NCBI GenBank assembly: GCA_964406895.1
Contig: CAYOTK010000002.1
Span: forward strand, 6,004 to 70,003
Source of the DNA: an uncultured Candidatus Saccharibacteria bacterium
GTDB taxonomy: Bacteria > Patescibacteriota > Minisyncoccia > Phycocordibacterales > PALSA-1337
Reading direction: 5' to 3'
Length of the DNA: 64,000 nucleotides
Made by a program: the position numbers and the translations under genes. The notes beneath the pieces are model-generated. The model was not told the origin of the DNA. It was given only the letters and a program-made list of their open reading frames with translations, and did no database searches. How positions within the stretch are numbered: position 1 is the first letter of the stretch; every line of letters begins with the position of its first letter. Positions 4,850 to 24,519 of the stretch are shown in pieces.

Positions 4850-5117
4850 TTAGGTAACTTGTAGCTTGGATTTTTGTATTTATTTTTTCTTTTTATTTTT
4901 AACTTCGGCGAGTATGGTTTGCGAGTTGGGAAGCAGACCTGCCGAAGCGCTCAAAAAAACTGAAGACAACCGCGGTAAGGTAATACCTTGCCATATTGTA
5001 AGGTTTTAAGTCGTGAGAGTGATAAGTTAAGGAAACAGCGGTTTTGGGTTGGGAAAGTTGTCCTAATAAATAGAGTCTGGTTTCCATGGATGTAAGGATA
5101 GCCTCAAGCTAAAAGAG

Positions 5118-5235
5118 GGTCGGCTCCAATGTTGTCTACGCCAACTGGAACCCGAGTGATGGTCAGCTCAATGTGAACGCCAATGCTCCGGACAACTCAA
5201 ATCCGAATATCGGTTGCCGCCCCTCCCGCCGTTTC
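5118..5235 (+). repeat. DGR template repeat (TR), rich in AAC/AAT codons
   Basis: Encodes N V V Y A N W N P S D G Q L N V N A N A P D N S N P N I; aligned VR1 and VR2 positions differ almost only where the TR has A. Confidence 0.7.
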
Positions 5236-5664
5236 TGTTTTAGTAATAGACTGTCCTATTTAAATGGCTTGGATGAATTTGTGAAAGAAGAATTAGGATC
5301 TAGGTTCTATATTCAATACAATGATGATTTTGTGATTTCGGATAATTCTAAATTGCGTTTAAAAAAATATTTGCCACGGATAAGAAAACTCTTGGAAGAA
5401 AAATTAGAACTGAAAATTCCGGCAGAAAAAACGTCTATAAGAAAATTGGAGTGGGAAGTGGATTTTCTAGGTTACATTATTTTGAAAGACGCTGTTTTGC
5501 TCAGAAATAAGACTAAAGGCAAAATTTTTGAGAGGTTGAATGAGAAAAATATCAGTTCTTATTTAGGCTTGTTAAAACATTGCAATTCTTATACTTTAAA
5601 ACAGAAGATCATTTCAAATTATAATAGTCAAATAAAGTCTTATGACTTTGAAGGTGATTTTTAA
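5173..5664 (+). CDS. reverse transcriptase, DGR-type, N-terminally truncated (end of motif 4 through motif 7 and thumb only); GTG start lies inside the TR
   Basis: FSNRLSYLNGLDEFVK (motif 4 tail), RFYIQYNDDFVI (motif 5 YxDD), LELKIPAEKTSIRK (motif 6), VDFLGYII (motif 7); a TAA stop lies in-frame just upstream of the TR, so no motifs 1-3. Confidence 0.6.
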   Translation: MNANAPDNSNPNIGCRPSRRFCFSNRLSYLNGLDEFVKEELGSRFYIQYNDDFVISDNSKLRLKKYLPRIRKLLEEKLELKIPAEKTSIRKLEWEVDFLGYIILKDAVLLRNKTKGKIFERLNEKNISSYLGLLKHCNSYTLKQKIISNYNSQIKSYDFEGDF

Positions 5665-5689
5665 TTTACAGTATGCTAGTATTTACGGT

Positions 5690-6718
5690 ATGAAATTTGA
5701 AGCCTTAAAGCCCAAAGGTGTTACGGAAGAACCTGAAGTTTCAGGACTCGAAGCTTTGTCGGAAGAGGAAAAACAAGAAAAAGTCGCTTTAATGAAAGAA
5801 CTTGAGAATCGTATTAAAGCTGTAGAAGCCGGTCTGGCAGACTTGCAAGATGCTGTTACTGAAGCAGAAAAAAGCAATGATTGGTCAAAGGTTTCGTCAC
5901 TAAAAAATATTTTGAAAAGTAAACTGGCGCTCGCCAAAACCGCTCAAAGAAAATTAGAAGGTCGAGAGGAAGAACTTACTATTTCTGCCGAATATAAGTA
6001 TAAAGATGAGAAAGGGAAGGAAATCGCGGAGACGATAGAATTGGATTTCGAAACAGAAATTTCCTCTCTGATTGATTTATACAAGAGGAATGGCATTGAA
6101 GTCCCCGTTGACTTTAAGGAACAAATGCAAAGTCTTTGGGAGAAAAATGCCGATGCTATGACGGAAGCCGTTGCCGAGAAAGGATTTGATCAGGTTTTGT
6201 TTATTCCGGAAAATCTGCCCAAACTCAAAGAGTTAGAGGTTAAAATGACCGCGGGTTATGAAAAAGAAAAAGGCAATAAGACTTATTGGTATATAAGTGC
6301 TGATGATATAAAAGAAACAGCGACAAGGGGAGCCAGAATCATTTTGGTTCACAAGGCTCCGGATTTGACCGCTCACCCAGAACTAAAGAAAACACTGAGC
6401 AAGGAATTCGGTGGAGAAAAAGAAAATGGGAAAGATAATAAAGCGGAGGATTTTATAAAAGACGGCGAATCTTTGACTTTGTCTGAATATTTGATTTTAC
6501 AGAGAGATGTTTTTGAGAAAACTGGTGTTCATCTGGATAGCAAACTAACACCTGATGGCGATTATATTTTCTGGACATGGCTTCCCGGTTCTCAAGTCGG
6601 CTCCTATGTTATCGACGCCGGCTGGAGCCCGGGTGGTGGTCGGCTCGGTGTGAGTGCCCGTGCTCCGGACTACTCGCAGCCGGCTATCGGTCGCCGCCCC
6701 TCCCGCTGTTTCCAATAA
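5690..6718 (+). CDS. stand-alone paralog of the MoxR C-terminal domain carrying DGR variable repeat VR2 (ORF track start 5642; a later Met nearer 5690 is more likely)
   Basis: Aligns over ~230 aa with the C-terminal half of CDS 2768..4849 (YKRKDEKGE.../YKYKDEKGKE..., LTLTDYLI/LTLSEYLI); ends ...GRRPSRCFQ. Confidence 0.6.
   Translation: MKFEALKPKGVTEEPEVSGLEALSEEEKQEKVALMKELENRIKAVEAGLADLQDAVTEAEKSNDWSKVSSLKNILKSKLALAKTAQRKLEGREEELTISAEYKYKDEKGKEIAETIELDFETEISSLIDLYKRNGIEVPVDFKEQMQSLWEKNADAMTEAVAEKGFDQVLFIPENLPKLKELEVKMTAGYEKEKGNKTYWYISADDIKETATRGARIILVHKAPDLTAHPELKKTLSKEFGGEKENGKDNKAEDFIKDGESLTLSEYLILQRDVFEKTGVHLDSKLTPDGDYIFWTWLPGSQVGSYVIDAGWSPGGGRLGVSARAPDYSQPAIGRRPSRCFQ
6595..6712 (+). repeat. 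DGR variable repeat VR2
   Basis: ~115-nt match to the TR with differences concentrated at TR adenines; the same ~50-nt 3' flank (ccaataattagRtaacttgtag..ttggatttt.gtatttatttt) follows both VR1 and VR2. Confidence 0.65.
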
Positions 6719-6940
6719 TTAGATAACTTGTAGTTTGGATTTTGTATTTATTTTCCTTTTTTTATCTTCGATTTTTTTAAAATACATCAGATGTGGTGGT
6801 TGCAAAACTCACAAGTGAATAAAAAGTCACCATATGTTTTATTTTAGAAAAGAATATAATATTTGCGTAAAGTTAAATAATAAAAAATGAAATATTTTGT
6901 TGGATATCTAGCGTCTGAAAAATTATGATAGTATTAATTC

Positions 6941-10882: not shown

Positions 10883-11335
10883 TTGAAATACATTATAACG
10901 CACGGTGACAAGGAAAAGGGGCCGGATCCCGAACTGCACATTTTAGGAATCGCTCAGGTCGCCGGCTTGACCGTCCCTGAAGACGTCACGAACGTGATCG
11001 TCGGTACCGGACGTCGTTTCATTCAGACATGGGATACCGTCAAAAAATCCAAGACTCTGAACGTTGCGGTGAGGTACTCTCCGCTCTGCGGCTCCGCCGA
11101 CAGTGGCGAGAAGAGCGAGACCAGTTTCATGGTCACTCTCGCTGATGGAACCAGCGTGGGGATTGGTGACTACGTCGGTCTCATCGGTACTCCCGGGGTC
11201 GACCTCAAGTCTTGGTTGGACTCCTTGCCGGAGGGCACCCTCCTCATCGCCGGCCGAGAATTTCTCGGTGCCATCGGATACACTGAGGGAAAGACCGGCA
11301 CCCTCTACAAGTACAGTGAGGGCCGGATTGTGTGA
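10883..11335 (+). CDS. hypothetical protein in a GC-rich island (weak SixA / histidine-phosphatase-like N-terminus with THG in place of RHG)
   Basis: MKYIITHGDK... resembles the start of SixA-type phosphatases; local GC is far above the flanks. Confidence 0.3.
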   Translation: MKYIITHGDKEKGPDPELHILGIAQVAGLTVPEDVTNVIVGTGRRFIQTWDTVKKSKTLNVAVRYSPLCGSADSGEKSETSFMVTLADGTSVGIGDYVGLIGTPGVDLKSWLDSLPEGTLLIAGREFLGAIGYTEGKTGTLYKYSEGRIV

Positions 11336-11473
11336 GAACACGGGGCTGCGCTCGCCGAATACCGGCGGGTCGCGGCCCTTTTTGATTTTACTGACACTTC
11401 CAAAGATTATTCTGAACTAGTTTGAAAAATTAAAACTGTACTACTTTTCCCAAAAATATGTTAAATTTTATAT

Positions 11474-13894
11474 ATGAAATACACCAAATTATTTCGTGAA
11501 TTAAACAGGAATGATGCGTCAATAGCAGGAGGAAAGGGCGCGTCTTTGGGAGAAATGTTAAATGCGGGCATACCTGTTCCTGATGGTTATGTGGTACTTT
11601 CCACCACCTTTGATAAATTCATTGAAGATACTGATTTGGTTCAAGAAATAGACGCAATTTTAGACAGTGTGGATCACAAAGAAATTCATACTGTAGAGGG
11701 TGCATCCGAGAAAATAAAAGGTCTCATTTTGTCGCGTGAAATGCCTCACGATATAGCGGAAGAAATAAAAACAAATTTCAAAAGTTTGGATACGAAGTTT
11801 GTTGCCGTTCGTTCCTCAGCTACAGCAGAAGATGGTGCTGAACACGCTTGGGCAGGACAGCTCGAATCATATTTGAATACGACCGATAAGGATTTGTTAG
11901 ATAAAGTCAAACATTGCTGGGCTTCACTTTTTACACCTCGCGCTATATTTTATCGTTTCGAGAAAGGCCTACACTCAACCAGGATATCCGTAGCAGTTGT
12001 GGTACAAAAGATGGTCGAATCAGAAGTTTCCGGCATTGCATTCTCGGTACATCCTGTGACTGAAGATCGCAATCAGTTGATCATTGAAGCGGGCTTCGGG
12101 CTGGGTGAAGCAATCGTCTCTGGTTCTGTAACGCCTGATAGTTATGTGGTCGAGAAAACTCCAAGAAGAGTGATCGACAAAAATATAAGCACACAAGAAA
12201 GAGGTTTATTTAGAGTTGAGACGGGTGGTAATGAATGGAGAACAATCAATGAACCGATGGCCTCGTCACAAGTTTTGGATGAGAAACAAATTTTTGATCT
12301 TTCAGAAATTATAGTTGGTATTGAGAATCACTATGGTTTTCCTTGTGATATAGAATGGGCATACGAAAAAGGTAAGTTTTATATTGTGCAAAGTAGGCCA
12401 ATTACGACGTTGAGTGCAATTGTAGAAAAAAAAGATTTGGCAGACGAATATCTTGAACGCATTGGAAATCGGAAATTGTATCCTCCATTGAACGGTTATT
12501 CTGCATTTTTGCAGGGATCAGAATATAATATCGAAAAGTATTTTGGCAAATGGTATGAAAATAAAGTAAGATATGATTTTTTTCTCCACATGAAAGACGG
12601 GTATTCGCAAGTTTGGTTACCAGAAGACGATATTCGAGGTGCTTCTGACTTTGGGCTACGAGAATACCTGAATAAATCAAAGTCATTTGATCGTAGAATT
12701 GATTTTATGGATGAAAGCATAAAATATATTGATAAGATATATACACAATATACTTACGAAAAGATTGATGGAACAAAGTTGGACAAACTATTCTTATTGG
12801 TAAATGAAGTTAGAGACATTATTTGGGATGTAAACGCCGCTGTATCATTTTCTATCTTTTTTGATAAGAAAATGTGTGAAAATATTCTTATTGATGAAAA
12901 GTACCCGATCACCTCAAATGAAATTGATATTTTGTGGGATAAGGCTGTGACGCCAGCATTTGAATCGTTCGACAAGGTTCAACTCTGTCATTTGTTGACC
13001 TTGATGAGTAAGCCTAGTAAATGGGAATCAGTTTTAGAGGAATGCCAGTATTTTTTGACAGATTATCATTCAGCCAAGACTTTATCAGAAATTGAAAAAG
13101 CATTGAAAGAAAGATATAAGAAATATATTGATGAACCAGGAAGCGTGAAAGAGACTCTCAAAACTGAGACTGAAGAAGTGGCCAGAATGATTTCTGAACA
13201 TAAAAAATGGCTATATACATTGCCGGAAAATGAAAAGAAAATTGCAAATTATCTTCAAACTGTGATGAAGGTCAGGGATAGAAGAAAGAACTTCTTTGCT
13301 AAAGGTATGACAATAATGTACAGAGTGGCAGAAAAAGTTTTCAGAGAAGCTGGTGTAGATCGAAATCTTATTCCTTATTATACAATCCGTGAACTTCTTA
13401 ATGGTGTCGATTATTTGAAATCTTCTGTTGATGATTTGAAAGATAGAAAAAACGGTTTCCAATGGCTCGTGCCGTATTCTGATCAACCAAAAAAGCAAAA
13501 TATAAATATTGATAGTGGAATACAAAAAATCAATAATTATTTCAAGGAGTGTCATTTAAGTGACAATAATTCCAGTGAAATTCAAGGTCAATGTGCTTAT
13601 AAAGGTGTTATTAAAGGTCGTGTTCGAATAGTATTGAATGTAAATTCGAATCATGGTTTTTCTGATGGTGAAGTGCTTGTTGCGGGAATGACTCGACCGG
13701 AGTATGTTCCGTTGATGAAAAAAGCTGCGGCAATCATTACAGACGAAGGTGGAATTACATGTCACGCTGCAATCGTTTCCCGCGAACTCAAGAAACCCTG
13801 CATTATCGGCACAAAGATCGCCACCAAAGTCCTGAAAGACGGCGATATGGTAGAGGTGGATGCGGATAAGGGGGTGGTAGTTATTCTTAAATAA
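11474..13894 (+). CDS. PEP-utilizing enzyme, PEP synthase / rifampicin phosphotransferase-like (ATP-grasp PPDK_N domain + central domain + C-terminal phosphohistidine swivel domain)
   Basis: N-terminus IAGGKGASLGEMLNAGIPVPDGYVV (PPDK N-terminal domain); C-terminus GGITCHAAIVSRELKKPCIIGT (PEP-utilizers mobile-domain His motif). Confidence 0.75.
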   Translation: MKYTKLFRELNRNDASIAGGKGASLGEMLNAGIPVPDGYVVLSTTFDKFIEDTDLVQEIDAILDSVDHKEIHTVEGASEKIKGLILSREMPHDIAEEIKTNFKSLDTKFVAVRSSATAEDGAEHAWAGQLESYLNTTDKDLLDKVKHCWASLFTPRAIFYRFEKGLHSTRISVAVVVQKMVESEVSGIAFSVHPVTEDRNQLIIEAGFGLGEAIVSGSVTPDSYVVEKTPRRVIDKNISTQERGLFRVETGGNEWRTINEPMASSQVLDEKQIFDLSEIIVGIENHYGFPCDIEWAYEKGKFYIVQSRPITTLSAIVEKKDLADEYLERIGNRKLYPPLNGYSAFLQGSEYNIEKYFGKWYENKVRYDFFLHMKDGYSQVWLPEDDIRGASDFGLREYLNKSKSFDRRIDFMDESIKYIDKIYTQYTYEKIDGTKLDKLFLLVNEVRDIIWDVNAAVSFSIFFDKKMCENILIDEKYPITSNEIDILWDKAVTPAFESFDKVQLCHLLTLMSKPSKWESVLEECQYFLTDYHSAKTLSEIEKALKERYKKYIDEPGSVKETLKTETEEVARMISEHKKWLYTLPENEKKIANYLQTVMKVRDRRKNFFAKGMTIMYRVAEKVFREAGVDRNLIPYYTIRELLNGVDYLKSSVDDLKDRKNGFQWLVPYSDQPKKQNINIDSGIQKINNYFKECHLSDNNSSEIQGQCAYKGVIKGRVRIVLNVNSNHGFSDGEVLVAGMTRPEYVPLMKKAAAIITDEGGITCHAAIVSRELKKPCIIGTKIATKVLKDGDMVEVDADKGVVVILK

Positions 13895-13895
13895 A

Positions 13896-14981
13896 ATGTC
13901 ATTAGAAAAACAACAAAAAATGGATGAAAAATGGCTTATTCCTCGAAAACGCTATGTTCCTTGTGTCTGGCCGTTCCATACTTATTGGGCATGGCCTGTA
14001 CACAAATATTTTGGTGTACCCACTACGGGAAAAGTTTTAAGTATTTGGGAAGATGGTGATTATACTGTGGTTTTTGATAAACATAAAACTGGTATAGATT
14101 TGGGAAATGCAATCACTGATAAGATTCTTACAGAGAAAAATGATTTAATAGGTTTTAGAGAGAAAGGCATTAAGGCAGGGGAAAATACAGTAATTTTTTG
14201 CAAGGAATTTTCCAAAAAATCAGAAAATTCATCTATTTCTGAATTTGTTGATTTTCTGAATGGATTCACCGAAAAGTATATAGTCATCATGAGAGATAAT
14301 ATGCATTACTGGGTAATGGGATCACCAATCATAGAAAAAATGATTCGTAACAATCTGTCGACTTTTGATGCAAATATCATAGATGAGATTTTTCACATAA
14401 TGGCTGTACCAATCGAAATGTCATATAGTAGCCTCATTGATTCAGAGTTGAAAAAGATATGTGATATGGCTCGACAAAATGGCATAGGGTTAGTCAAGGG
14501 AGACATAAAAAACTTCTCGCATAAATATTTTTGGTTCCCATATGAATATGTTGGACCTGGGATTTGGGATGATAAAACTGTGACCGGTCTAATCGAAACA
14601 GATATAAAAAAAGGTTCAAGCAATCATGTTGGTGCATCTGGTAGTGTAGAATTACAAAAAGAATGTGTCAAAAAATACTCTTTATCCCAACAAATAGTCG
14701 AATTATTCAAAATTCTTCAAACACTAGCCTTAATGTCTGATGATCGTAAAAGATATAACTCTGAAATATGTTATTATTTAAATGGAGTAATTTTCCCAAA
14801 TCTGGCAAAGAAGCTCGGTATAACTAGAGAGGAGGCTTTATATGTAGATCATGAATTCTTATCTTTATTTGAGAAAGATTCAATAACGTTCAGAAAACGA
14901 CTTAATAAAAGAACCGAGATGTTGGTAGAAATTACCGAAGATGGTGTTTATTCATGGTACGAGGGTAAAGAGGAATGTTAA
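13896..14981 (+). CDS. central (substrate-binding-like) domain paralog without swivel domain; apparently split from the next ORF
   Basis: Stop overlaps the start of the next ORF (taaatg); together the two ORFs reconstitute the central + His-domain architecture of the neighbouring paralogs. Confidence 0.4.
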   Translation: MSLEKQQKMDEKWLIPRKRYVPCVWPFHTYWAWPVHKYFGVPTTGKVLSIWEDGDYTVVFDKHKTGIDLGNAITDKILTEKNDLIGFREKGIKAGENTVIFCKEFSKKSENSSISEFVDFLNGFTEKYIVIMRDNMHYWVMGSPIIEKMIRNNLSTFDANIIDEIFHIMAVPIEMSYSSLIDSELKKICDMARQNGIGLVKGDIKNFSHKYFWFPYEYVGPGIWDDKTVTGLIETDIKKGSSNHVGASGSVELQKECVKKYSLSQQIVELFKILQTLALMSDDRKRYNSEICYYLNGVIFPNLAKKLGITREEALYVDHEFLSLFEKDSITFRKRLNKRTEMLVEITEDGVYSWYEGKEEC

Positions 14982-15347
14982 ATGTTATTAGATTCATTGG
15001 ATATTCACTTGAAAGTTGATGATAATATAAGAGAGATCAAGGGTCAGGTTGCTTTTAAAGGAAAAGTGATTGGCAAAGTCAGGATTTTGAAGACATCACA
15101 CGTTGATGATTTTGAAGAGGGAGATATTATAGTAACAGGCATGACAACACCAGATTTTGCACCGCTCATGAAAAAGGCTTCCGCGATTGTGACAAATGAG
15201 GGCGGTATCACATGTCATGCGGCTATAGTTTCTAGAGAATTGAAAATACCCTGTGTAATCGGCACAAAAATTGCTACTCAAGTTTTCAAAGACGGCGATA
15301 TGGTAGAGGTGGACGCGGATAAGGGGGTGGTGAAAATAATAAAATAA
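14982..15347 (+). CDS. stand-alone PEP-utilizing phosphohistidine swivel domain (121 aa)
   Basis: GMTTPDFAPLMKKASAIVTNEGGITCHAAIVSRELKIPCVIGTKIATQVFKDGDMVEVDADKGVVKIIK. Confidence 0.6.
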   Translation: MLLDSLDIHLKVDDNIREIKGQVAFKGKVIGKVRILKTSHVDDFEEGDIIVTGMTTPDFAPLMKKASAIVTNEGGITCHAAIVSRELKIPCVIGTKIATQVFKDGDMVEVDADKGVVKIIK

Positions 15348-15375
15348 TATGAATTTAAAATATTAATCTACTAAC

Positions 15376-16701
15376 ATGATTTTACCAAAAGAAAAATATC
15401 AAAAGACAGTCAAGAGACCGTATCCGCCATTATTGGGATCATTGGTGATTCAGGGTATAACGGATACAAAAGTTTATGACGGTTTTTTTTCTGTTCCGTT
15501 CGCCAGAAAGGATTCGGTCTTGTGTGACGGAGCTTGGTATAACAATGGTGAGGCGGAGGATTATGGTCGTGAATTGATATCCAAAGAATGGAATAATCAA
15601 AGTTCAATTGATTTCCTTTCAAAAGAGTGTCGTCGTAGGGAAAAAATTCTATTGGATTCAACAGACAAATCATTTGAAGTATATTCAAAAGCCTTTGAAA
15701 ATTATATGGTTGCACTCACTCTTGTATATTTGGCTGAAGTGCCTTTTTTCAATAAACTTAAAGAGATGCTTATGGAAAATTCGGATGAAATGCAGGCTAA
15801 GGAGTTGCTTGAGATTCTAAATACTCCATTTGAGGATAATTATCACAGAAAAGAAGAGTATGATTTGATTACATCGAATAATTTGACTGAACACGTAAAG
15901 AAATATGAATGGTTTCTTTCAAGATATGGTGCAGATGTGATTTATACAGTAGATAAGGCAAAGGAAAGATTATTATCTTTAGACAAGGATTTTTTGAGCA
16001 AATACAATATTTTAAAAGAGGAAGTTAAGACGGCAATAAAAAAAGCCAAGAACATTGTTGGGCAACAAAACAGTTATTTGGTTGACGGCCTACAATTCAT
16101 TGTTTTTTACAGAACACACAGAACTGATGTTATTAGTAGATCAATATTCATGCATAAAAAAGTATTGAATGATATTGCAAAAGCAAATTCATTGTTATAT
16201 GAAGATATTTTGTTTTGTCTTGAAGCTGAATTGATAAAAAAATCTATTCCCAGCGTAGATACAATTCAGGAAAGAAAAAAAGGTTATGTTATATATTCAG
16301 AAAATGGCCATATTATTTGCAAAATTGGTAAAGAGTTTGAAGATATAAGACGTGGCCTTGAAGACGATATTCAGACAGTGACTGAGTTGCGCGGTAATAG
16401 CGCTTCCAAAGGTAAATCTGTCGGAAGAGTTAAAATTATTAATAATTCTTTAGATTTTTCCAAAATAAATGATGGAGATATTTTGGTATCAAGCATGACT
16501 ACTCCTGAAATGGTTCCGATAATGAAAAAGTCATCTGCCTTCGTAACAGATGAAGGCGGCATAACTTGTCATGCGGCTATTGTTGCACGCGAACTTAAAA
16601 AACCCTGCATTATTGGCACAAAGATCGCCACCAAAGTCCTGAAAGACGGCGACATGGTAGAGGTGGATGCGGATAAGGGGGTGGTAAAAATAATAAAATA
16701 A
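15376..16701 (+). CDS. swivel-domain paralog: variable central domain + C-terminal PEP-utilizing His domain, no ATP-grasp domain
   Basis: ...ERKKGY... then MTTPEMVPIMKKSSAFVTDEGGITCHAAIVARELKKPCIIGT; no PPDK_N motifs. Confidence 0.65.
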   Translation: MILPKEKYQKTVKRPYPPLLGSLVIQGITDTKVYDGFFSVPFARKDSVLCDGAWYNNGEAEDYGRELISKEWNNQSSIDFLSKECRRREKILLDSTDKSFEVYSKAFENYMVALTLVYLAEVPFFNKLKEMLMENSDEMQAKELLEILNTPFEDNYHRKEEYDLITSNNLTEHVKKYEWFLSRYGADVIYTVDKAKERLLSLDKDFLSKYNILKEEVKTAIKKAKNIVGQQNSYLVDGLQFIVFYRTHRTDVISRSIFMHKKVLNDIAKANSLLYEDILFCLEAELIKKSIPSVDTIQERKKGYVIYSENGHIICKIGKEFEDIRRGLEDDIQTVTELRGNSASKGKSVGRVKIINNSLDFSKINDGDILVSSMTTPEMVPIMKKSSAFVTDEGGITCHAAIVARELKKPCIIGTKIATKVLKDGDMVEVDADKGVVKIIK

Positions 16702-16702
16702 T

Positions 16703-18205
16703 ATGAATTATAAAAATGACAAAAGAATATTAAATGTTCAAAGCTCATATTCAAAAGAGCAAATACAGGAGGTCTTAAAAAGAACATGGTTTAAGGTTGT
16801 GCGAAGAGAAAATACCCCTCTATGGGAATCCCTGATTCAAGCTGGAGGAGCTTTGAGCCGTGAAGATATCGGATTTGAGAATCCTATGTCAGATCTTTAT
16901 GCTCTTGATTATGACAAATATGCGGCCGAGGACGATTTTAAGGAATTAAAAAGACAATTTATCGAGGCTTGCAAAAATGATTCCAATTTTTTAACAAATT
17001 TTTTCAAATACCTTGAGGATAAATGCAAGGAATTTGATGATTTTGTTTTGCAAAATGAAATAAATGAGTGGGGTAAGTTGGATAACAAAGAACTTGGTTT
17101 TATTTACGACAAATTTGCAAATTTTTCCTTAGAAGTTTTGATTTTTTTGTGGCCTCCACTTGGACCAGAGGAGTGGATAGTTGAAAAGATATCTAGTGAA
17201 CTTTCGAAACGAATTGATCCAGTTAATCAGTATAATGATAATCAAAAAGCTTTTGACATATTAATTTCTTCTGAAATTCCTTCATTAATTCAAGAACGAG
17301 AGTTTGAGATTCTTAAACTTGCTACGAAGGTAGGGGATATCAATAAAATTCCTGAGTTTAAAAATGAAATTGAGTTAGTTTATCGAAGATATGCTTGGAT
17401 AAACGATCATTCTTTGAAATTTGAGTTTGAAAGCTACATACATTTTGAGGAAGAATTAATTCAGGTCTTAAAAAATAATCCTAAAGAAAAACTTTCTCGA
17501 ATTAACGCTGAAAAAGAGAGTAAAAAGAAAGAAAAAATGGCTCTTTTGAATAATCTTAATCTTGGGAAAGATATTGAAAACTATATATACCAAGCATCAC
17601 ATTTACCACACTGGAGATTTCTTAGAACCGAAAAAAGCGTCGAAGCGGCGTATCGCTTGAGCGGAATGTTCAGGGAGTTAGAAAAAAGATTAGGTATAGA
17701 TCCTCTCTTGGCTTATTATTGGGAAATTGGACAGCTTCTGGATGGACAGAATGTTAATAAAGAAAATATTGAAGCTAGAAAAAACGGATATGGACTTATT
17801 ATTAGCACTGATCATATTGCTGACCTAGATACTGCATCAAGAAAAGTCCTAAAAGATGGAATCGAAAGTAAAATTGAATTGGGGAAAGTTATTAAAGGCA
17901 ATGTGGCGTGCAGAGGGTTTGTGAAGGGTAGGGTTAGAGTTCTTCATACTGTTAAAGGATTATCTACCTTTAAAGATGGTGAGATCCTTGTGACATCAAT
18001 GACAACTCCTGAATTTGTGCCAATTATGAGGATGGCTATTGCTATTATTACAGATGAGGGCGGAATAAGTTGTCATGCGGCCATTGTCTCTCGTGAGCTA
18101 AAGGTTCCATGTATAATTGGTACCAAAGTTGCAACTAAACTTCTGAAAAGCGGAGATAATGTAGAGGTTGATGCAAATAAGGGAATCGTAAAAATAATAA
18201 AATAA
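16703..18205 (+). CDS. swivel-domain paralog (central domain + PEP-utilizing His domain)
   Basis: ...ARKNGY... TDEGGISCHAAIVSRELKVPCIIGTKVATKLLKSGDNVEVDANKGIVKIIK. Confidence 0.65.
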   Translation: MNYKNDKRILNVQSSYSKEQIQEVLKRTWFKVVRRENTPLWESLIQAGGALSREDIGFENPMSDLYALDYDKYAAEDDFKELKRQFIEACKNDSNFLTNFFKYLEDKCKEFDDFVLQNEINEWGKLDNKELGFIYDKFANFSLEVLIFLWPPLGPEEWIVEKISSELSKRIDPVNQYNDNQKAFDILISSEIPSLIQEREFEILKLATKVGDINKIPEFKNEIELVYRRYAWINDHSLKFEFESYIHFEEELIQVLKNNPKEKLSRINAEKESKKKEKMALLNNLNLGKDIENYIYQASHLPHWRFLRTEKSVEAAYRLSGMFRELEKRLGIDPLLAYYWEIGQLLDGQNVNKENIEARKNGYGLIISTDHIADLDTASRKVLKDGIESKIELGKVIKGNVACRGFVKGRVRVLHTVKGLSTFKDGEILVTSMTTPEFVPIMRMAIAIITDEGGISCHAAIVSRELKVPCIIGTKVATKLLKSGDNVEVDANKGIVKIIK

Positions 18206-18207
18206 AC

Positions 18208-19206
18208 ATGACCAAACTTCATGAGCTTGTTCATCTCAGTGCACCACTAGTTTTTGCAGACTTGTTTACCGTTTGTGAAGGTGGTAGTCAATTCTTCTGG
18301 TCAAAAGAAAAAAGTCCAGAGGGTGTTGGGTGTTTGGCGTATAGAAAAAAAGATTTAGTATATTTTTATTACAATCCAGAATTAATTGATTGGAAAATGA
18401 CTGAGTCTAGTAAATTTGATGAGCAGATTTTACTTCAGAAATCTTCAGATGCCTTCAGTAAAATCAGGGAAATATTGATTAAAGAAAACCCCCTCAATAG
18501 AGAACAGTTAAAAGAATTTATCCCAGAAGTAATTTTATTCTGGAAATGGTTCGATGGTATCTGGTGGAGAATTGAATTTGCTGAAAAAAACAAAATCGAT
18601 TATGGGAATTTGATGTCACTTAGAAAAGAAACTGAATATTTCGTTCCTAGTCTTCGATTGGTAATTAGAAAATCATTCAAGGAGATTTTGGACAAAAGAT
18701 ACGAGCAGTATATTGATGTTCTTAGATTAAACGAGGTGCTTGAATCAAAATTACCCTCAATTGAAGAGTTAAATTCGAGACTCGAGAGTTATGTTGTTAT
18801 AAATGGGAAATTATTTAACAACATTGAGAGTGCACTGAAGGAATTTGATTTTGATATGCCGTTAGATGAGGTTGATCTTAATAGTAAAGAACTTCATGGA
18901 CAGTGTGCTTTCCCAGGCAGAGTCAAATCCAAAATAAAGATTGTTAATTCTGTTGACGATTTACACAAGTTTTCATCTGGCGATATTATTGTTTCTAGTA
19001 CTACAACACCAGATTTTCTTCCAATCATGAAGATATCAAAAGCCATAATTTCTGAACATGGTGGAATAATATGTCATGCAGCGATAACTTCTCGAGAACT
19101 AAAGATTCCATGTGTCGTCGGCGTTAAAAATGCAACAAAGATTCTAAAGGATGGTGACATGGTAGAAGTTGATGCGGATAGGGGGATTGTTAAGATAATA
19201 AAATGA
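18208..19206 (+). CDS. swivel-domain paralog (short central domain + PEP-utilizing His domain)
   Basis: SEHGGIICHAAITSRELKIPCVVGVKNATKILKDGDMVEVDADRGIVKIIK. Confidence 0.6.
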   Translation: MTKLHELVHLSAPLVFADLFTVCEGGSQFFWSKEKSPEGVGCLAYRKKDLVYFYYNPELIDWKMTESSKFDEQILLQKSSDAFSKIREILIKENPLNREQLKEFIPEVILFWKWFDGIWWRIEFAEKNKIDYGNLMSLRKETEYFVPSLRLVIRKSFKEILDKRYEQYIDVLRLNEVLESKLPSIEELNSRLESYVVINGKLFNNIESALKEFDFDMPLDEVDLNSKELHGQCAFPGRVKSKIKIVNSVDDLHKFSSGDIIVSSTTTPDFLPIMKISKAIISEHGGIICHAAITSRELKIPCVVGVKNATKILKDGDMVEVDADRGIVKIIK

Positions 19207-20492
19207 TAGACAAAAAATTAAAATTCAATATGCCTGTGTTGACGTATTTTTATAGTCCTGTAATGGAGGCAGCAAAGATCAAATATAAAAACGAATATAT
19301 TGTAGGAAAATGGTTTGTTCGATGTTCAAAAAATAAAGGATTTACTGGTGCTCTAGCCTTTGATAGCACATTTCTTGAACCGGGAAGAAGGTTTTTGAAT
19401 TTGCTCGACACTGATTTTGAGTTTGGTGATTATCTATATAACTGTTGCAAACAAGTTTCTCAAACAGCAGATAAACTTCAAACTATTTATATTAGCGATT
19501 TAACAAATAATAAAATCTCAAATTTAGATCTTTTTTATCCAGATTATAAGAAGGTATTTTCATTAGCGGTTGGATTTGGTTATTCCCTAGATTTTGCATT
19601 TGACGAATATATTAAAAAAAATAATATTAACCCATCAAATCTAGAGTCGGTTGGACTGTCATTCCAAAATCTAGAAAAAAATGAATTAAGAAAGATATTT
19701 CTTGAAAAAGATCAGGCGGAATTTGATAACAAAATGCGAGAACACATATTAAAATATTCGTGGCTTTTAAATAATTATGCTGGTGAACATTTGATTACAA
19801 AGGATTATTTTTTGAATAGAAAATCAGAGGTTTTAAATCATTCCTTTGTGGAAGATATAACAAAAAACTCTCAACCAAAAAATATCACTGAATGGATATC
19901 TTTCTTAACTTACGTGCGAGATGAAAGAAAGAGACTCAATCTTATAGCCACAGGACTCCTTGATCGATATTTGAAAAACGAATGTAGTAAATTGAATATT
20001 TCTAGAGACACTGCTGTTCTTTTAACAGTAGAAGAATTTGAAAAATTTAAAGAAAACATCAGTTTGATCCCTGAACGATTAGAAAGATTCATTAAGATCA
20101 CGCATGAGGGCTTGATAGATGTTTCTAGAAAAGAATGGGATGAAGCTTTCAAAGAAGAACTTATAACGTCAAGTGAAATTAGAGGTCAGATTGCTTCTAA
20201 GGGCACAGCTACAGGAAAAGTAAAAATTATTATTAATCGAGAGGATTTCGATAAATTACAAAATGGAGAAATTATTGTTGCTTCAATGACAAGACCAGAA
20301 TTTGCTCCTATTTTGAATAGATGTTCTGCTATAATAACAGACGAAGGAGGTGTCACTTGCCATGCAGCGATTGTAGCCAGGGAATTAAATATTCCTTGTA
20401 TTATTGGAACTCAAATAGCTACTGAGGTTTTGAAAGACGGCGATATGGTAGAAGTGGATGCGGATAAGGGTATTGTTAAGGTTATTATATAA
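19203..20492 (+). CDS. swivel-domain paralog (central domain + PEP-utilizing His domain)
   Basis: TDEGGVTCHAAIVARELNIPCIIGTQIATEVLKDGDMVEVDADKGIVKVII. Confidence 0.65.
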   Translation: MIDKKLKFNMPVLTYFYSPVMEAAKIKYKNEYIVGKWFVRCSKNKGFTGALAFDSTFLEPGRRFLNLLDTDFEFGDYLYNCCKQVSQTADKLQTIYISDLTNNKISNLDLFYPDYKKVFSLAVGFGYSLDFAFDEYIKKNNINPSNLESVGLSFQNLEKNELRKIFLEKDQAEFDNKMREHILKYSWLLNNYAGEHLITKDYFLNRKSEVLNHSFVEDITKNSQPKNITEWISFLTYVRDERKRLNLIATGLLDRYLKNECSKLNISRDTAVLLTVEEFEKFKENISLIPERLERFIKITHEGLIDVSRKEWDEAFKEELITSSEIRGQIASKGTATGKVKIIINREDFDKLQNGEIIVASMTRPEFAPILNRCSAIITDEGGVTCHAAIVARELNIPCIIGTQIATEVLKDGDMVEVDADKGIVKVII

Positions 20493-20500
20493 TTTATTTT

Positions 20501-21532
20501 ATGTGGAAAAAACTTGTAACAAGAGAATCGACATTCATTGAACGAACATTAAGGTTTGATGGATATTATGAGTTTCTGCCAAATCCATTTACCGTAAAAC
20601 AAAAGGATTTGTTGGCTATTTATAAGAATGGAATGACTACCCAATATGTCCAAACTGATGATTTTGAATCAAAGCTTGATTTTTTAAAACATGACTTGCA
20701 TGAAATCGGTTTTGAAAAAATAATAAATAAATGGGACTATATTTTTTATCAACTGGATGAGGTCTCACAAAAGCTAGCTAAGTCAGGTTTAATTGCTGAT
20801 TTGATAAGTTTCGGAAAATACTATAAACAATCTCGTGCAATTATTCTTTACGCATTTAATCTGGCTAAATTATTGAAAGGAGAGAATGAAAAAGATTCAA
20901 GGATAGATATATTGCAAAAGTACTATGATGAAGCCGAGGTTAAAAGTAGTAGATCTTGGTTAAAGATTCACCCTTTTGTTGAAAACATAAAGCATAAAAT
21001 GGCAGTTGGTGATGAAATTTATTCATATTCATTTGAGGAATTTTGTAATTTTTTATCAACTGGTGTAAAGATTGATAAAAAGATTCTTCGTGAACGAGAG
21101 GAATTATCAGTTATTTTAATTGATAATTATAAATATAATATTTACTTTGGAAGTGAGGCAGTAAAGATAATTAATACATTAAATATTGAGGATGACATTA
21201 TTACAGCTGGGGCTGAAATTAGTGGTACGGTTGTCTATAAAGGAAAAGTTTGTGGACGCGCAGTTATTATAAAATCAAAAGAAGATTATAAAAATATTCA
21301 AGACGGAGATGTATTGATTACTACAATGACTGATCCGTCAATGGTCAGTTATTTATCAAAAGTCGTCGCCATAGTTACGGATGAAGGCGGAATATTATGT
21401 CACGCATCTATTATTTCGCGAGAAATGAGAATACCATGTGTTATTGCGACAAGGTATGCTACTAGGGTTTTGAAAGAAGGCGACATGGTAGAGGTTGATG
21501 CGGATAAGGGAGTGGTGAGGATTATTAAGTAA
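20501..21532 (+). CDS. swivel-domain paralog (central domain + PEP-utilizing His domain)
   Basis: TDEGGILCHASIISREMRIPCVIATRYATRVLKEGDMVEVDADKGVVRIIK. Confidence 0.65.
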   Translation: MWKKLVTRESTFIERTLRFDGYYEFLPNPFTVKQKDLLAIYKNGMTTQYVQTDDFESKLDFLKHDLHEIGFEKIINKWDYIFYQLDEVSQKLAKSGLIADLISFGKYYKQSRAIILYAFNLAKLLKGENEKDSRIDILQKYYDEAEVKSSRSWLKIHPFVENIKHKMAVGDEIYSYSFEEFCNFLSTGVKIDKKILREREELSVILIDNYKYNIYFGSEAVKIINTLNIEDDIITAGAEISGTVVYKGKVCGRAVIIKSKEDYKNIQDGDVLITTMTDPSMVSYLSKVVAIVTDEGGILCHASIISREMRIPCVIATRYATRVLKEGDMVEVDADKGVVRIIK

Positions 21533-21547
21533 TATAGTTTAATTATT

Positions 21548-22426
21548 ATGACTATTGAAACACAAGAAGTTTTTGAAAGAAAAGAAAAAGGTAGTAATGT
21601 CGAAGTTCTTGTTAGATTTATGCGACATGGCGAACGCGATAAGGTGGGTAATCTTATAGATCTCGGTAGACAAATAACAAGACAACAAGCCGCAAATGAT
21701 GCAGAAAACATGGACAATGATTTTGATGCAGTCAAGGCTATTGGATCAGATGCTGGACCGAAAGGATCAACAAATATGGAAAGAGCCTTAGAGACAGCAC
21801 ATATTTATGCACAAGAAATAGCTGGTGACGATGCATTTAAAACACGAGTTAACTCTGTGTTGAGTTATGAGACATTAAAAAATCCCGTTCCTTATAACCA
21901 CGTTGAGATATACAATGCGAATTTACCGGCTAATTTCGAGTCTTTAAGAGGAGATGAATATGTACAGGCCGCAAAAAGGGCACAAAGTGCAGTTATAAAT
22001 CATTTGCTATCTCTCAACACTCCTGAGGCAAAAGTTTTTATAGATGAAGTCGCTGGAGCGTTCGCTCTTGTCATAGAACATTATATAGAGGTTGCAAAAA
22101 GGATAAATTCTGAATCAAAAGTACTAATACCCGCTGGTACTCATGGTGGTCTCATGGAGCTTTTGTTAAAAGAGGCTTTGGTCAGAGTTGATGGGGAAGG
22201 TAATAAAATTGTTGGTTTTAAAAATATTGATGAAATAGGTGGCGAATTCAATCCTTCAGAATCGTATGATGTTGATATTAGAACTGATGAGAAAGGCGAT
22301 ATTCTTCCTTTGAAAGTCTATTTTACTTCTCAATCTAGACCAAAAGGAGATATGTTTCTGGATTTAGACAAATTACACGCACTCAGTGAGTATTACAGGA
22401 GTATACATAAAGATGAAATCAGATAA
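21548..22426 (+). CDS. histidine phosphatase superfamily protein (phosphoglycerate-mutase-like) embedded in the swivel-domain array
   Basis: N-terminal RHGE-type motif VRFMRHGERDKVGNLIDLG. Confidence 0.5.
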   Translation: MTIETQEVFERKEKGSNVEVLVRFMRHGERDKVGNLIDLGRQITRQQAANDAENMDNDFDAVKAIGSDAGPKGSTNMERALETAHIYAQEIAGDDAFKTRVNSVLSYETLKNPVPYNHVEIYNANLPANFESLRGDEYVQAAKRAQSAVINHLLSLNTPEAKVFIDEVAGAFALVIEHYIEVAKRINSESKVLIPAGTHGGLMELLLKEALVRVDGEGNKIVGFKNIDEIGGEFNPSESYDVDIRTDEKGDILPLKVYFTSQSRPKGDMFLDLDKLHALSEYYRSIHKDEIR

Positions 22427-23831
22427 AATAAAACCAAATTGGCTAAAAGTCGTCTCATTTAAGACCGAGCTTCTTTCTGAATATTTGATTCATAAGGGGT
22501 ATAGGGAAGATCTGCCAAAATTATTACCCCGAATCGGTTTGTTGAGAAATCGTATGATTATCGACAACGATATTTATGTGGACTTGAATGAGGTTAATGA
22601 AGTATCAAAAATTTTATCTAAAGATTTAATTTCTTATGCTGACGAAGCCTATTCTGCTATTGAGGCGCAGTCTACAAAATTACTTATTATTTCCAATAAG
22701 ATTAGAAAGAGTGATATTTTTTCATTTTCCAATCAAGATTTAATAGATTATTTGAAAGATTTTTTCGCTGAGTACAAATGTGCTCTTGGTGCAATTGGAA
22801 TTCCAACCATTATTGATCTGACTATAGAACCGAAAATAAAAGAATATTTAAGAACTTCCGAAATTAAAAATGTCGACGAAGCTTTTGGTGTGCTTGCTAT
22901 TTCAGAAAGAACCATAGCAACAAATCAAGAATCTATGGATCTTATTGATATTGCAATTGAAAAGAGTAGCGATAGAGATTTTGTAAATTGCGTAGAAAAA
23001 CACAATCAAAAATATGGCTGGTTGCACTCGACATTGTTTTTGGGTGATGAGTATACAGAGTCAAAAATAGTCGATGAAATAAACAGTATTGGCAATCCCA
23101 TTATAGAAAAAGAACATATTATTGGTGAACGCAGAAGACAAATTGCTGAAACAGAAAATATGATTGAGCGCATATCGTCTGAAGAGGGAAAATCTCTCGC
23201 AAGATTCTTTCAGAAGGCGGTATATTTTCGAACTGCACGGCTCGAATGGCTGAATCAGGCCTGTTTTGCAATGCGTCCAGTAATGAACGAGATTGCTTCT
23301 AGACTAAAAATCAACTTTGATGACCTTATTTATCTTTATCCGGAGGAAATATATAAATTACTATCTCAGCCATCTTTATTAAATAAGGAGGTTATAAATG
23401 AGCGTAAAAAAGGTTATGCTTTTATCTCAGATGATAGTCATGAATATGCTCTGTTCACCGGACAGCATCTCATGGAATGGAAAGAAAAATTTTCAGTTAA
23501 AATAGACATGGGCGTAATCAAAGGGACCGTTGCATGCAAGGGCAAAGTAAGGGGTCGCGTTGTTCTGATGAAAGATCGCTCAGAATTAAGTAAGATTCAT
23601 TTTGGAGATATTATGGTTACACCACTGACTACACCTGATTTTGTTGTTGCAATGAAGAAATCAAGTGCAATTGTTACAGATCTTGGAGGAATGACTTCTC
23701 ATGCCGCTATTGTTTCTCGTGAATTGGGAATTCCTTGTATTGTGGGAACGAAGAATGCAACAAGAATTTTGAAAGACGGTGACATGGTAGAAGTAGATGC
23801 GAATAACGGAGTCGTAAATATTCTTAAATAA
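22413..23831 (+). CDS. swivel-domain paralog (central domain + PEP-utilizing His domain); ORF track start is 22386, Met at ~22413 is more likely
   Basis: ...ERKKGY... TDLGGMTSHAAIVSRELGIPCIVGTKNATRILKDGDMVEVDANNGVVNILK. Confidence 0.65.
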   Translation: MKSDKIKPNWLKVVSFKTELLSEYLIHKGYREDLPKLLPRIGLLRNRMIIDNDIYVDLNEVNEVSKILSKDLISYADEAYSAIEAQSTKLLIISNKIRKSDIFSFSNQDLIDYLKDFFAEYKCALGAIGIPTIIDLTIEPKIKEYLRTSEIKNVDEAFGVLAISERTIATNQESMDLIDIAIEKSSDRDFVNCVEKHNQKYGWLHSTLFLGDEYTESKIVDEINSIGNPIIEKEHIIGERRRQIAETENMIERISSEEGKSLARFFQKAVYFRTARLEWLNQACFAMRPVMNEIASRLKINFDDLIYLYPEEIYKLLSQPSLLNKEVINERKKGYAFISDDSHEYALFTGQHLMEWKEKFSVKIDMGVIKGTVACKGKVRGRVVLMKDRSELSKIHFGDIMVTPLTTPDFVVAMKKSSAIVTDLGGMTSHAAIVSRELGIPCIVGTKNATRILKDGDMVEVDANNGVVNILK

Positions 23832-23832
23832 A

Positions 23833-24519
23833 ATGAAAAAAGTACTTATAACAGGTGGTAGTGATGGACTTGGAAAAATGCTGGCGAAGATTCTTGTTTC
23901 GAGCAAGAAGTACAAAGTTATTATTCTTTCTAGGGATGAAAAGAATACAAAGCAAGTTGCAAAACAGATTGGTTGTGATTATGTTGTTGCTGATGTTGCT
24001 GATTATTCACAGGTCAAATCTGCTATTTCTAAAGTCATGAATAAGCACGAATCTATCGATTGTCTCGTAAATAATGCCGGGGTTTGGATTCAGGGCCCAT
24101 TGGAATCAAATGATCCAAAAGAAATTGAAAAAGTTATGAGAATAAATTCAATTGGAGTAATAAATATAACGCACGCAGTTCTTCCTTTCATGAAAAAAAT
24201 AAAGTCTGGAAGAATTATTAATGTAATATCGCAGGCTGGTCTATATGGAAAATCAGAGCGTAGTGTTTATACTGCTTCAAAGTTTGCCATAACTGGACTT
24301 ACAAAGGCAATGGATTTGGAGCTCTCACCCTTCGGTATTTCTGTGGTTGGTTTTTATCCAGGTGCTATGAAGACTGACTTTTTTGCAAAAGTTAAAATTA
24401 ATAAAGATATGTCCGGTTATATGGATATAAAAGACGTGGCGAATGCGCTTAAGTTTATCATTGAAATTCCTGAAGGTTTGACAGTGCCAGAATTTGGATT
24501 GAGGTCATTGAAACAGTAG
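23833..24519 (+). CDS. short-chain dehydrogenase/reductase (SDR)
   Basis: NAD(P)-binding ITGGSDGLGK, catalytic YTASK (YxxxK). Confidence 0.7.
   Translation: MKKVLITGGSDGLGKMLAKILVSSKKYKVIILSRDEKNTKQVAKQIGCDYVVADVADYSQVKSAISKVMNKHESIDCLVNNAGVWIQGPLESNDPKEIEKVMRINSIGVINITHAVLPFMKKIKSGRIINVISQAGLYGKSERSVYTASKFAITGLTKAMDLELSPFGISVVGFYPGAMKTDFFAKVKINKDMSGYMDIKDVANALKFIIEIPEGLTVPEFGLRSLKQ

Follow-up and report, generated by a model that had tools for sequence, protein, structure and literature searches.

Probable short-tract gene conversion at the 3′ ends of tandem swivel-domain dikinase paralogs in an uncultured Saccharibacteria bacterium

Gene conversion is familiar in several bacterial gene families, among them tufA/tufB, the rRNA operons, the opa/pil genes of Neisseria and the mycobacterial PE/PPE genes. 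Here we describe a stretch of 64,000 nucleotides (the window) from an uncultured Candidatus Saccharibacteria bacterium (contig CAYOTK010000002.1), in which positions 11474–23831 are predicted from their domain content to be an operon-like tandem array of eight rifampin-phosphotransferase (RPH)-like small-molecule dikinase paralogs with a common segment at their 3′ ends. We consider it probable that short-tract gene conversion acts on these ends on top of amino-acid constraint, and that the shared end doubles as a recombination junction. The closest described enzymes are RPH itself (PDB entries 5fbs, 5fbt, 5fbu and 5hv1; PMC4844700) and the split dikinases HpeHI, CreHI and PpsAB, in which an 'H' component with the substrate-binding and swivel His domains is encoded apart from an 'I' component with the ATP-grasp domain (PMC12167813). 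Genes resembling rph have been counted in resistome surveys of the candidate phyla radiation (PMC8651080), and no description of dikinase arrays of the present kind was found in the literature searched.

The array consists of ten tightly packed open reading frames (ORFs), all on the + strand and named in order g1, g2, g2b, g3 to g7, gX and g8 (Table 1). Nine of them account for the eight swivel paralogs, with g2 and g2b counted once, and gX is the tenth. Across the nine junctions the spacing from stop codon to next start is 0–3 nt at six, a short gap at two and an overlap at one. PF00391 (PEP-utilizers, swivel) is the C-terminal domain in 8/8 paralogs (Pfam, E 1e-23 to 1e-27), and the His of the phosphocarrier motif T/S-x-x-G-G-x-x-x-H is kept in all eight, as T(D/N)EGGxxCHAA in six, SEHGGIICHAA in g5 and TDLGGMTSHAA in g8. 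The ATP-grasp domain, PPDK_N, was found in g1 only (Pfam, E 2.9e-96); the other seven paralogs lack it and therefore cannot be complete enzymes alone.

The sequence of g1 matches phosphoenolpyruvate (PEP) synthases and the RPH entries 5fbs/5hv1 (E 4e-78), and g1 has the RPH order of ATP-grasp, helical substrate-binding and C-terminal His swivel domains. For g3, an AlphaFold2 model (mean pLDDT 93.9) has as its best PDB folds RPH 5fbu/5fbt (Foldseek, E 7e-15, TM 0.53–0.57), the match spanning the helical substrate domain as well as the swivel domain. The array differs from RPH in that identity in the fold alignment is only ~15%, 7/8 paralogs lack the ATP-grasp domain and nothing ties the array to rifampin. 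For the other paralogs the helical domain is predicted from similarity, weak at the sequence level, to g3, g8 and the middle domain of g1. Judged by domain content, the other paralogs have the layout of the H component of a two-component dikinase (substrate-binding plus swivel), with ATP-grasp only in g1, and it is reasonable to infer that one ATP-grasp domain may serve many swivel proteins as a multi-substrate phosphorylation battery.

A first-pass annotation of this DNA had described swivel-domain paralogs with almost identical 3′ ends. Scanning with the degenerate 44-nt sequence that it gave (≤3 mismatches; null of 100 shuffles) recovers six copies, at 13835, 15288, 16642, 20433, 21473 and 23772, where none are expected in shuffles, and all six end 16 nt ahead of the stop codon. 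More diverged versions, outside the ≤3-mismatch set, lie in g4 (18146–18189) and g5 (19147–19190); the shared end is thus real but belongs to eight swivel ends rather than six, ORF 14982–15347 (g2b) being the eighth. The degree of likeness is also uneven. Within the terminal segment, defined as codons −20 to −5 (16 codons, 48 nt), g1, g2b and g3 mutually differ at 1–5 positions, and g6 and g7 differ from these three at 5–7 and from each other at 8, so 'almost identical' describes these five (1–8 of 48 nt) but not g4, g5 and g8, which differ from the rest at 8–16. The 48 nt just before the segment hold 13–21 differences in every pair save g1/g3, which has 3, and mean nucleotide identity over the eight ends is 0.78 in the last 60 nt compared with 0.57 in the preceding 252 nt. 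Exact repeats common to the window paralogs, counted from the sequences, are ≤38 nt. G+C at third codon positions (GC3) changes from 0.28–0.29 elsewhere to 0.52 in the terminal 16 codons. In the AlphaFold2 model of g3 the segment forms the last β-hairpin (strands 427–431 and 436–439), and the hairpin sequence of the last ~16 conserved codons is KDGDMVEVDADKGVV.

To separate nucleotide likeness from amino-acid constraint, paralog pairs with the same residue were scored for use of the same codon against a null built from the array's own codon usage (3000 simulations). The same-codon fraction in codons −104 to −21 is 0.397 observed against 0.400 expected, so that the rest of the swivel domain is in complete synonymous saturation. 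In codons −20 to −5 it is 0.575 against 0.457 expected (z 3.1), a value reached in 8/3000 simulations. The codons shared there (GCG in 7/8, GTA in 8/8, AAG in 6/6, plus GAC and GGC) are minor ones in the array (GCG 13%, AAG 26%, GAC 19%, GGC 16%, GTA 24%). Nei-Gojobori estimates of the mean proportion of synonymous differences (pS) are 0.80 for the swivel (His) core and drop to 0.59 over the terminal 16 codons, where the minimum is 0.09; the nonsynonymous counterpart (pN) in these 16 codons is 0.08. Synonymous sites have therefore not diverged at the ends as they have in the core, and the likeness exceeds what amino-acid conservation alone would leave.

The pair g1/g3, the genes ending at 13894 and 16701, had been singled out for a longer common run, and a 50-mer is indeed exact in g3 at 16603–16652 and present with 1 mismatch in g1 at 13796–13845. 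It forms part of an 87-nt tract with 2 differences between the two genes. Upstream of the tract g1 and g3 have ~63% identity, almost every third position carrying a difference, and downstream of it the last 12 coding nt contain 6 differences. The two genes agree at 25 successive polymorphic sites, a run matched in 0/2000 site permutations (p<0.0005), and their pS is 0.10 within the tract vs 0.75 upstream. A recent duplication of g1/g3 is excluded because the N-terminal parts are barely alignable; across the paralogs these parts diverge at the protein level, as had been proposed, with 20–29% identity and pairwise BLASTP E values from 7e-12 to non-significant. The mosaic pattern suggests that the 87-nt tract is most likely one recent gene-conversion event.

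The dikinase family is abundant in metagenome bins of Patescibacteria and DPANN, commonly as arrays, with 10 paralogs in L004, 8 in L009, 6 fused in one ORF in L014 and 4 each in L019, L020 and L021. Orthologs of g1, g3 and g4 occur in other genomes at 50–74% identity, so the paralogs are older than these lineages. Over the swivel core (53 codons) nucleotide identity of g3 is 0.74–0.83 to its orthologs vs 0.66 to its own-array paralogs, and over the terminal 16 codons it is 0.69–0.77 to orthologs vs 0.86 (maximum 0.98) to own-array paralogs. Likewise, g1 gives 0.73–0.77 vs 0.64 in the core and 0.65–0.69 vs 0.86 in the terminal segment. In both genes the core groups by ortholog and the terminal segment by genome, which reads as the signature of concerted evolution. 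The ending KNGDMVEL is common to the g1 orthologs of L020 and L021, and window g1 has lost it in favour of the paralog consensus. In the control arrays L020, L021 and L004, which have similar residues and similar G+C, within-array terminal nucleotide identity is 0.67–0.70 vs 0.81 in the window, and terminal GC3 is 0.23–0.33 vs 0.52. Other arrays have genome-specific terminal residues of their own, DADNG in 4/4 L019 paralogs and KDGMM or KDGME in 3/8 L009 paralogs. The incongruence of core and terminal segment, the flat control arrays and the genome-specific residues together argue against a universal nucleotide element. Across seven arrays homogeneity and GC3 run loosely in parallel, with too few polarisable sites to gauge GC-biased conversion. 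A metagenome-wide motif scan found matches at five loci, all in GC-richer arrays (L012, L014); we rejected a horizontal origin of the GC-rich tract, chance matches being plausible with only these five loci.

In GC-richer relatives the swivel paralogs are fused into giant ORFs: L014 (whole locus, − strand) carries six swivel domains in an ORF of at least 2736 aa, and ORFs in L012 (199–3996, 1265 aa) and L009 (2–3277, 1091 aa) have two swivel domains each.

Two contigs from other strains, L015 (JGI) and L007 (Logan), are 98.0% and 96.8% identical to the window across g3. L015 differs at 0.5% of positions in the first ~1140 nt compared and at 10% in the final ~200 nt (Fisher p 1e-12), L007 at 2.0% and 9.6% (Fisher p 1e-6). 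At positions −99 to −13 window g3 has the g1 base at 8/9 sites where L007 differs, and the 3′ end of L007 g3 resembles the 3′ end of its own downstream paralog. The gene after the g3 stop differs in the three strains: it is g4 in the window, a g6-like gene (38–44% identity) in L007 and a window-absent paralog in L015, and the motif persists in the novel paralogs of L007 and L015. L009 corroborates the gene order of L015: past its g3 ortholog, and separated from it by one reverse-strand gene, the next swivel paralog is orthologous to the downstream gene of L015. Chimeric assembly of L015 or L007 is unlikely because exact repeats between paralogs inside either contig, counted from the sequences, are ≤20 nt. 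The earlier proposal that the ends are a recombination substrate stands to the extent that both contigs lose all homology to the window exactly at the g3 stop and a different paralog follows. Its extension, a shuffling of 5′ cassettes onto a common 3′ module, fared less well: what is seen is whole-gene replacement between strains (n=2 contigs), with no recombinase among the scanned ORFs and no inverted repeat in the motif.

Three independent assemblies (L016, L017 and L018) are 100% identical to the window wherever they cover it, so the shared ends are not an assembly artefact; all three span the g3 end and the g3–g4 junction, and L016 continues through the g4–g8 ends. These same-strain short-read contigs from Logan and JGI, obtained from three other samples, start at or inside the shared segment (L016 at 16657, L017 at 16667, L018 at 16625). 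The shared end breaks short-read assemblies, and paralog counts from metagenome-assembled genomes (MAGs) are therefore likely underestimates.

The concerted evolution or gene conversion first suggested for this locus is borne out by the synonymous excess, by the contrast in pS between the g1/g3 tract and its upstream flank, by the grouping of terminal segments by genome and by the flat control arrays. In the sequence of events that we favour, the paralogs are old, with diverged N-terminal domains and a synonymously saturated swivel core, and short tracts would have been copied repeatedly between them by non-reciprocal homologous recombination, presumably of RecA type, the g1/g3 tract representing one recent copying event. 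Because the genes abut, the shared end is the best nucleotide similarity between neighbours, and it is precisely at this end that strains differ in array content. If the single g1 ATP-grasp domain charges all swivel domains, selection may keep the ends uniform, and the GC-rich codons of the tract might reflect GC-biased conversion; a combination of GC-biased conversion with selection for a uniform docking surface could be at work.

Several points weigh against this account. The signal over all paralogs is modest (z 3.1), with mean terminal pS still 0.59, and in g4, g5 and g8, which differ from the others at 17–33% of the 48 nt, the synonymous effect is modest as well. Much of the raw nucleotide identity is plain amino-acid conservation, as the low terminal pN indicates. 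The His loop is equally conserved in its residues and is not homogenised, so conversion alone cannot explain the restriction to the extreme 3′ end. The codon for Val(−14) varies among the L015 paralogs (GTA, GTC, GTG), where homogeneity is incomplete, and the strain-variant evidence comes from two short contigs (L007 and L015; n=2, contig level). A homolog search with g1 gave no strain-level variant (best match 71% identical), and either gene may have been the donor in the g1/g3 event. Finally, selection on the nucleotide sequence could be responsible for the GC-rich codons of the tract instead.

A more far-reaching reading, which we regard as tentative and on balance unlikely, sees the shared end as a homology linker in a gene-cassette system that needs no recombinase. 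Substrate-specific dikinase H genes of Patescibacteria and DPANN would enter and leave arrays through homologous recombination at the common swivel end, one ATP-grasp domain would charge all of them, a histidine-phosphatase-like protein would reset them, and the C-terminal hairpin would stay uniform because every swivel domain docks on the same partner. The resetting partner would be of the type of gX, which has no Pfam match and no PDB sequence match and is colinear with L008:7544–8407 at 22% identity (pairwise E 0.2). A gene of ~290 aa with an RHG motif and a weak or faint His_Phos_1 match lies inside or ends the arrays L008 (7544–8410), L009 (14092–), L020 (9969–10841) and L021 (17099–17974). 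The weak similarity suggests that gX is probably a divergent histidine-phosphatase superfamily member, and the recurrent RHG-motif gene is a candidate phospho-His phosphatase resetting the swivel domains. If this reading is true, the cassette locus would give ultra-small symbionts a modular set of kinases for small molecules, whether toxins or nutrients, that evolves fast.

It is improbable, in our estimate, that the segment is instead a functional nucleotide element within coding sequence, such as a signal for ribosome binding or re-initiation at the abutting downstream gene, an internal promoter, a structured RNA or a recombination hotspot of Chi type. In its support, TAAGGGGGTGGT looks like the complete Shine-Dalgarno complement TAAGGAGGTGAT, the conserved positions are rich in G and unusual within the array (GC3 0.52 vs 0.29), the motif is kept in the novel L007 and L015 paralogs, and the tight packing of most genes suits translational coupling. 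A Shine-Dalgarno or coupling signal was nevertheless rejected: 0/47 window genes have a Shine-Dalgarno-like motif at −20 to −4, against a background of 6.4%, and the G-run lies at least 17–21 nt from the next start, further upstream than the 5–10 nt of a Shine-Dalgarno sequence and at variable spacing. There is no conserved RNA structure (RNAalifold consensus −2.25 kcal/mol, essentially no covariation in the motif), nor any promoter- or terminator-like site at the 3′ ends, overall counts matching shuffles (62 promoter-like vs 52±6 shuffled, 5 terminator-like vs 5.9), and Rfam families and tRNAs are absent from the window. In addition, L004, L020 and L021 use different codons for similar residues. 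The hotspot variant draws on GGTGG-containing hexamers, which outside 11400–24000 are 8–14 times commoner on the + than on the − strand (GGTGGA 43:3, GGTGGT 34:4). This bias could reflect a Chi/KOPS-like skewed word or plain G>C skew on an all-coding strand, and by our estimate it is about what the G>C skew would give.

Still less probable is amino-acid constraint plus codon bias alone, with KDGDMVEVDADKG a strongly conserved peptide and no exchange of DNA. The peptide is conserved family-wide and terminal pN is very low, and the five metagenome motif matches fall in the GC-richer L012 and L014 arrays, where such codons are common, and by a rough estimate could arise by chance given the peptide. 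Constraint of this kind does not account for an excess that lies in minor codons, for the drop of pS within the g1/g3 tract with its permutation support, for control arrays that show no excess despite similar peptides and G+C, or for terminal segments that group by genome and not by ortholog; for g1, g2b and g3 it is largely refuted.

We give very little credence to programmed cassette shuffling, in which the conserved end would be the site of a dedicated site-specific recombinase. The gene content of close strains does differ exactly at the conserved end, and the genes are co-oriented and abut like cassettes. Integron attC sites and shufflons, however, combine an adjacent recombinase with imperfect inverted repeats, and the array shows neither: a Pfam scan of the window ORFs of ≥150 aa (about 45 of 55, with g2b and antisense or overlapping ORFs left out) gave no integrase or recombinase domain, and the motif has no inverted repeats, hairpin potential or attC-like sites. 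The divergence gradient also begins ~200 nt before the stop, which fits homologous exchange rather than a precise site. Recent tandem duplication with fast 5′ divergence, or a repeat-collapsing assembly artefact, could be read into the tandem arrangement and into contigs that break at or inside the shared segment, but is the least credible of the alternatives and is refuted by the saturated core (pS 0.80) and low N-terminal identity, by orthologs of g1, g3 and g4 elsewhere, by three identical assemblies and by the short exact repeats in the window (≤38 nt) and in L015 and L007 (≤20 nt).

Table 1. Positions in the window of the array genes, of their 3′ segments and of the nearby retroelement
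Feature	Positions	Strand	Description
g1	11474–13894	+	806 aa fused dikinase: PPDK_N (2.9e-96), helical middle domain, PEP-utilizers (1.9e-25) (Pfam)
g2	13896–14981	+	361 aa, no Pfam domain
g2b	14982–15347	+	121 aa, swivel domain alone
g3	15376–16701	+	441 aa, helical substrate-binding-type domain and swivel, no ATP-grasp
g4	16703–18205	+	diverged N-terminal domain and swivel (Pfam PEP-utilizers)
g5	18208–19206	+	diverged N-terminal domain and swivel (Pfam PEP-utilizers)
g6	19203–20492	+	diverged N-terminal domain and swivel (Pfam PEP-utilizers)
g7	20501–21532	+	diverged N-terminal domain and swivel (Pfam PEP-utilizers)
gX	21548–22426	+	292 aa, RFMRHGERD motif (RHGE), between g7 and g8
g8	22386–23831	+	last swivel paralog; listed start GTG 22386
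g3 stop/g4 start junction	16687–16712	+	homology to L015 and L007 stops here
Probable conversion tract, g1 copy	13793–13879	+	
Probable conversion tract, g3 copy	16600–16686	+	
Homogenised 3′ segment, g1 copy	13835–13878	+	encodes KDGDMVEVDADKGV-
Homogenised 3′ segment, g2b copy	15288–15331	+	
Homogenised 3′ segment, g3 copy	16642–16685	+	
Homogenised 3′ segment, g4 copy, diverged	18146–18189	+	
Homogenised 3′ segment, g5 copy, diverged	19147–19190	+	
Homogenised 3′ segment, g6 copy	20433–20476	+	
Homogenised 3′ segment, g7 copy	21473–21516	+	
Homogenised 3′ segment, g8 copy	23772–23815	+	
Diversity-generating retroelement (DGR) template repeat (TR)	5119–5235		117 nt, overlaps start of reverse transcriptase (RT) ORF (RVT_1)
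DGR variable region (VR) 1	4727–4843		3′ end of ORF 2768–4849
DGR VR2	6596–6712		3′ end of ORF 5642–6718
DGR RT fragment	5173–5661		RVT_1

Some of the gene boundaries in Table 1 allow more than one reading. A single TAA separates g2 from g2b, which share one frame, and the two are either a split or nonsense-interrupted paralog or a genuine free-standing swivel protein. The sequence TAATATGAATTTA 3′ of the g2b stop repeats the g3/g4 junction TAATATGAATTAT and may be the remnant of a lost downstream gene start. The true start of g8 may be ATG 22413. Exact-sequence look-ups of g3 and P0001 returned no matching record.

Genes for an O-methyltransferase, a NUDIX protein, a short-chain dehydrogenase and an ABC-2 exporter lie near the array. 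Directly upstream, at 10883–11335, is a 150-aa ORF with G+C of 0.56 and GC3 of 0.69 in surroundings of 0.32–0.40; it starts MKYIITHGD, has no Pfam match, is accompanied by an open 132-aa antisense ORF and is possibly foreign DNA. A DGR at 4703–6768 is not related to the dikinase array. Its VR copies are 79–80% identical to the TR, with mismatches at template adenines at 18/25 and 17/23, and it was rejected as a source of the likeness between paralogs, its variable regions lying in ORFs 2768–4849 and 5642–6718, outside the array. A prophage-like block at 33085–63784, all on the + strand, encodes replication protein O, DNA methylases of the N6/N4 and C5 types, a portal–Mu F fusion, capsid, head-tail connector and tail tube proteins and, further along, a Fic protein, one more methylase and a ResIII helicase. 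All gene-like listed window ORFs of at least 150 aa are on the + strand, and TATAAT-like boxes within a few to 25 nt before several starts suggest leaderless or short-leader mRNAs.

As a process, short-tract gene conversion in a tandem gene family is ordinary and known, and this locus adds one more case. It would be a clean natural example, with conversion limited to ~45–90 nt at the end of a domain and related control arrays without it. Short-read assemblies break at the shared end, which is also where strains differ in array content, and MAG gene counts for the dikinase family are therefore unreliable. Loci of this type, which combine up to ten RPH-like paralogs lacking ATP-grasp with one ATP-grasp domain and a histidine-phosphatase-like gene, are found widely in Patescibacteria and DPANN. 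If one-to-many phosphotransfer is real, such an array would give reduced genomes a compact means of phosphorylating many small molecules.

A functional parallel is with HpeHI, CreHI and PpsAB, which the L008 and L003 arrays resemble in having a free-standing PPDK_N gene beside the swivel paralogs. The described systems, however, come from free-living bacteria and work on phenolic compounds as 1:1 pairs, whereas the arrays considered here, from Patescibacteria and DPANN genomes, have up to 8–10 H-type genes per ATP-grasp domain and usually carry a histidine-phosphatase-like gene as well. As to the process, the shared ends resemble conversion of the tufA/tufB type in the within-genome non-reciprocal copying that we favour, in sharp-edged mosaic tracts, in paralogs that are closer than orthologs within the tract and in the possible GC enrichment of the converted segment. 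Unlike those cases, the tract in the array is very short (~45–90 nt) and affects only the far 3′ end of one domain, leaving the equally conserved catalytic loop untouched, and it lies where abutting genes meet, a junction at which strains have replaced one gene with another.

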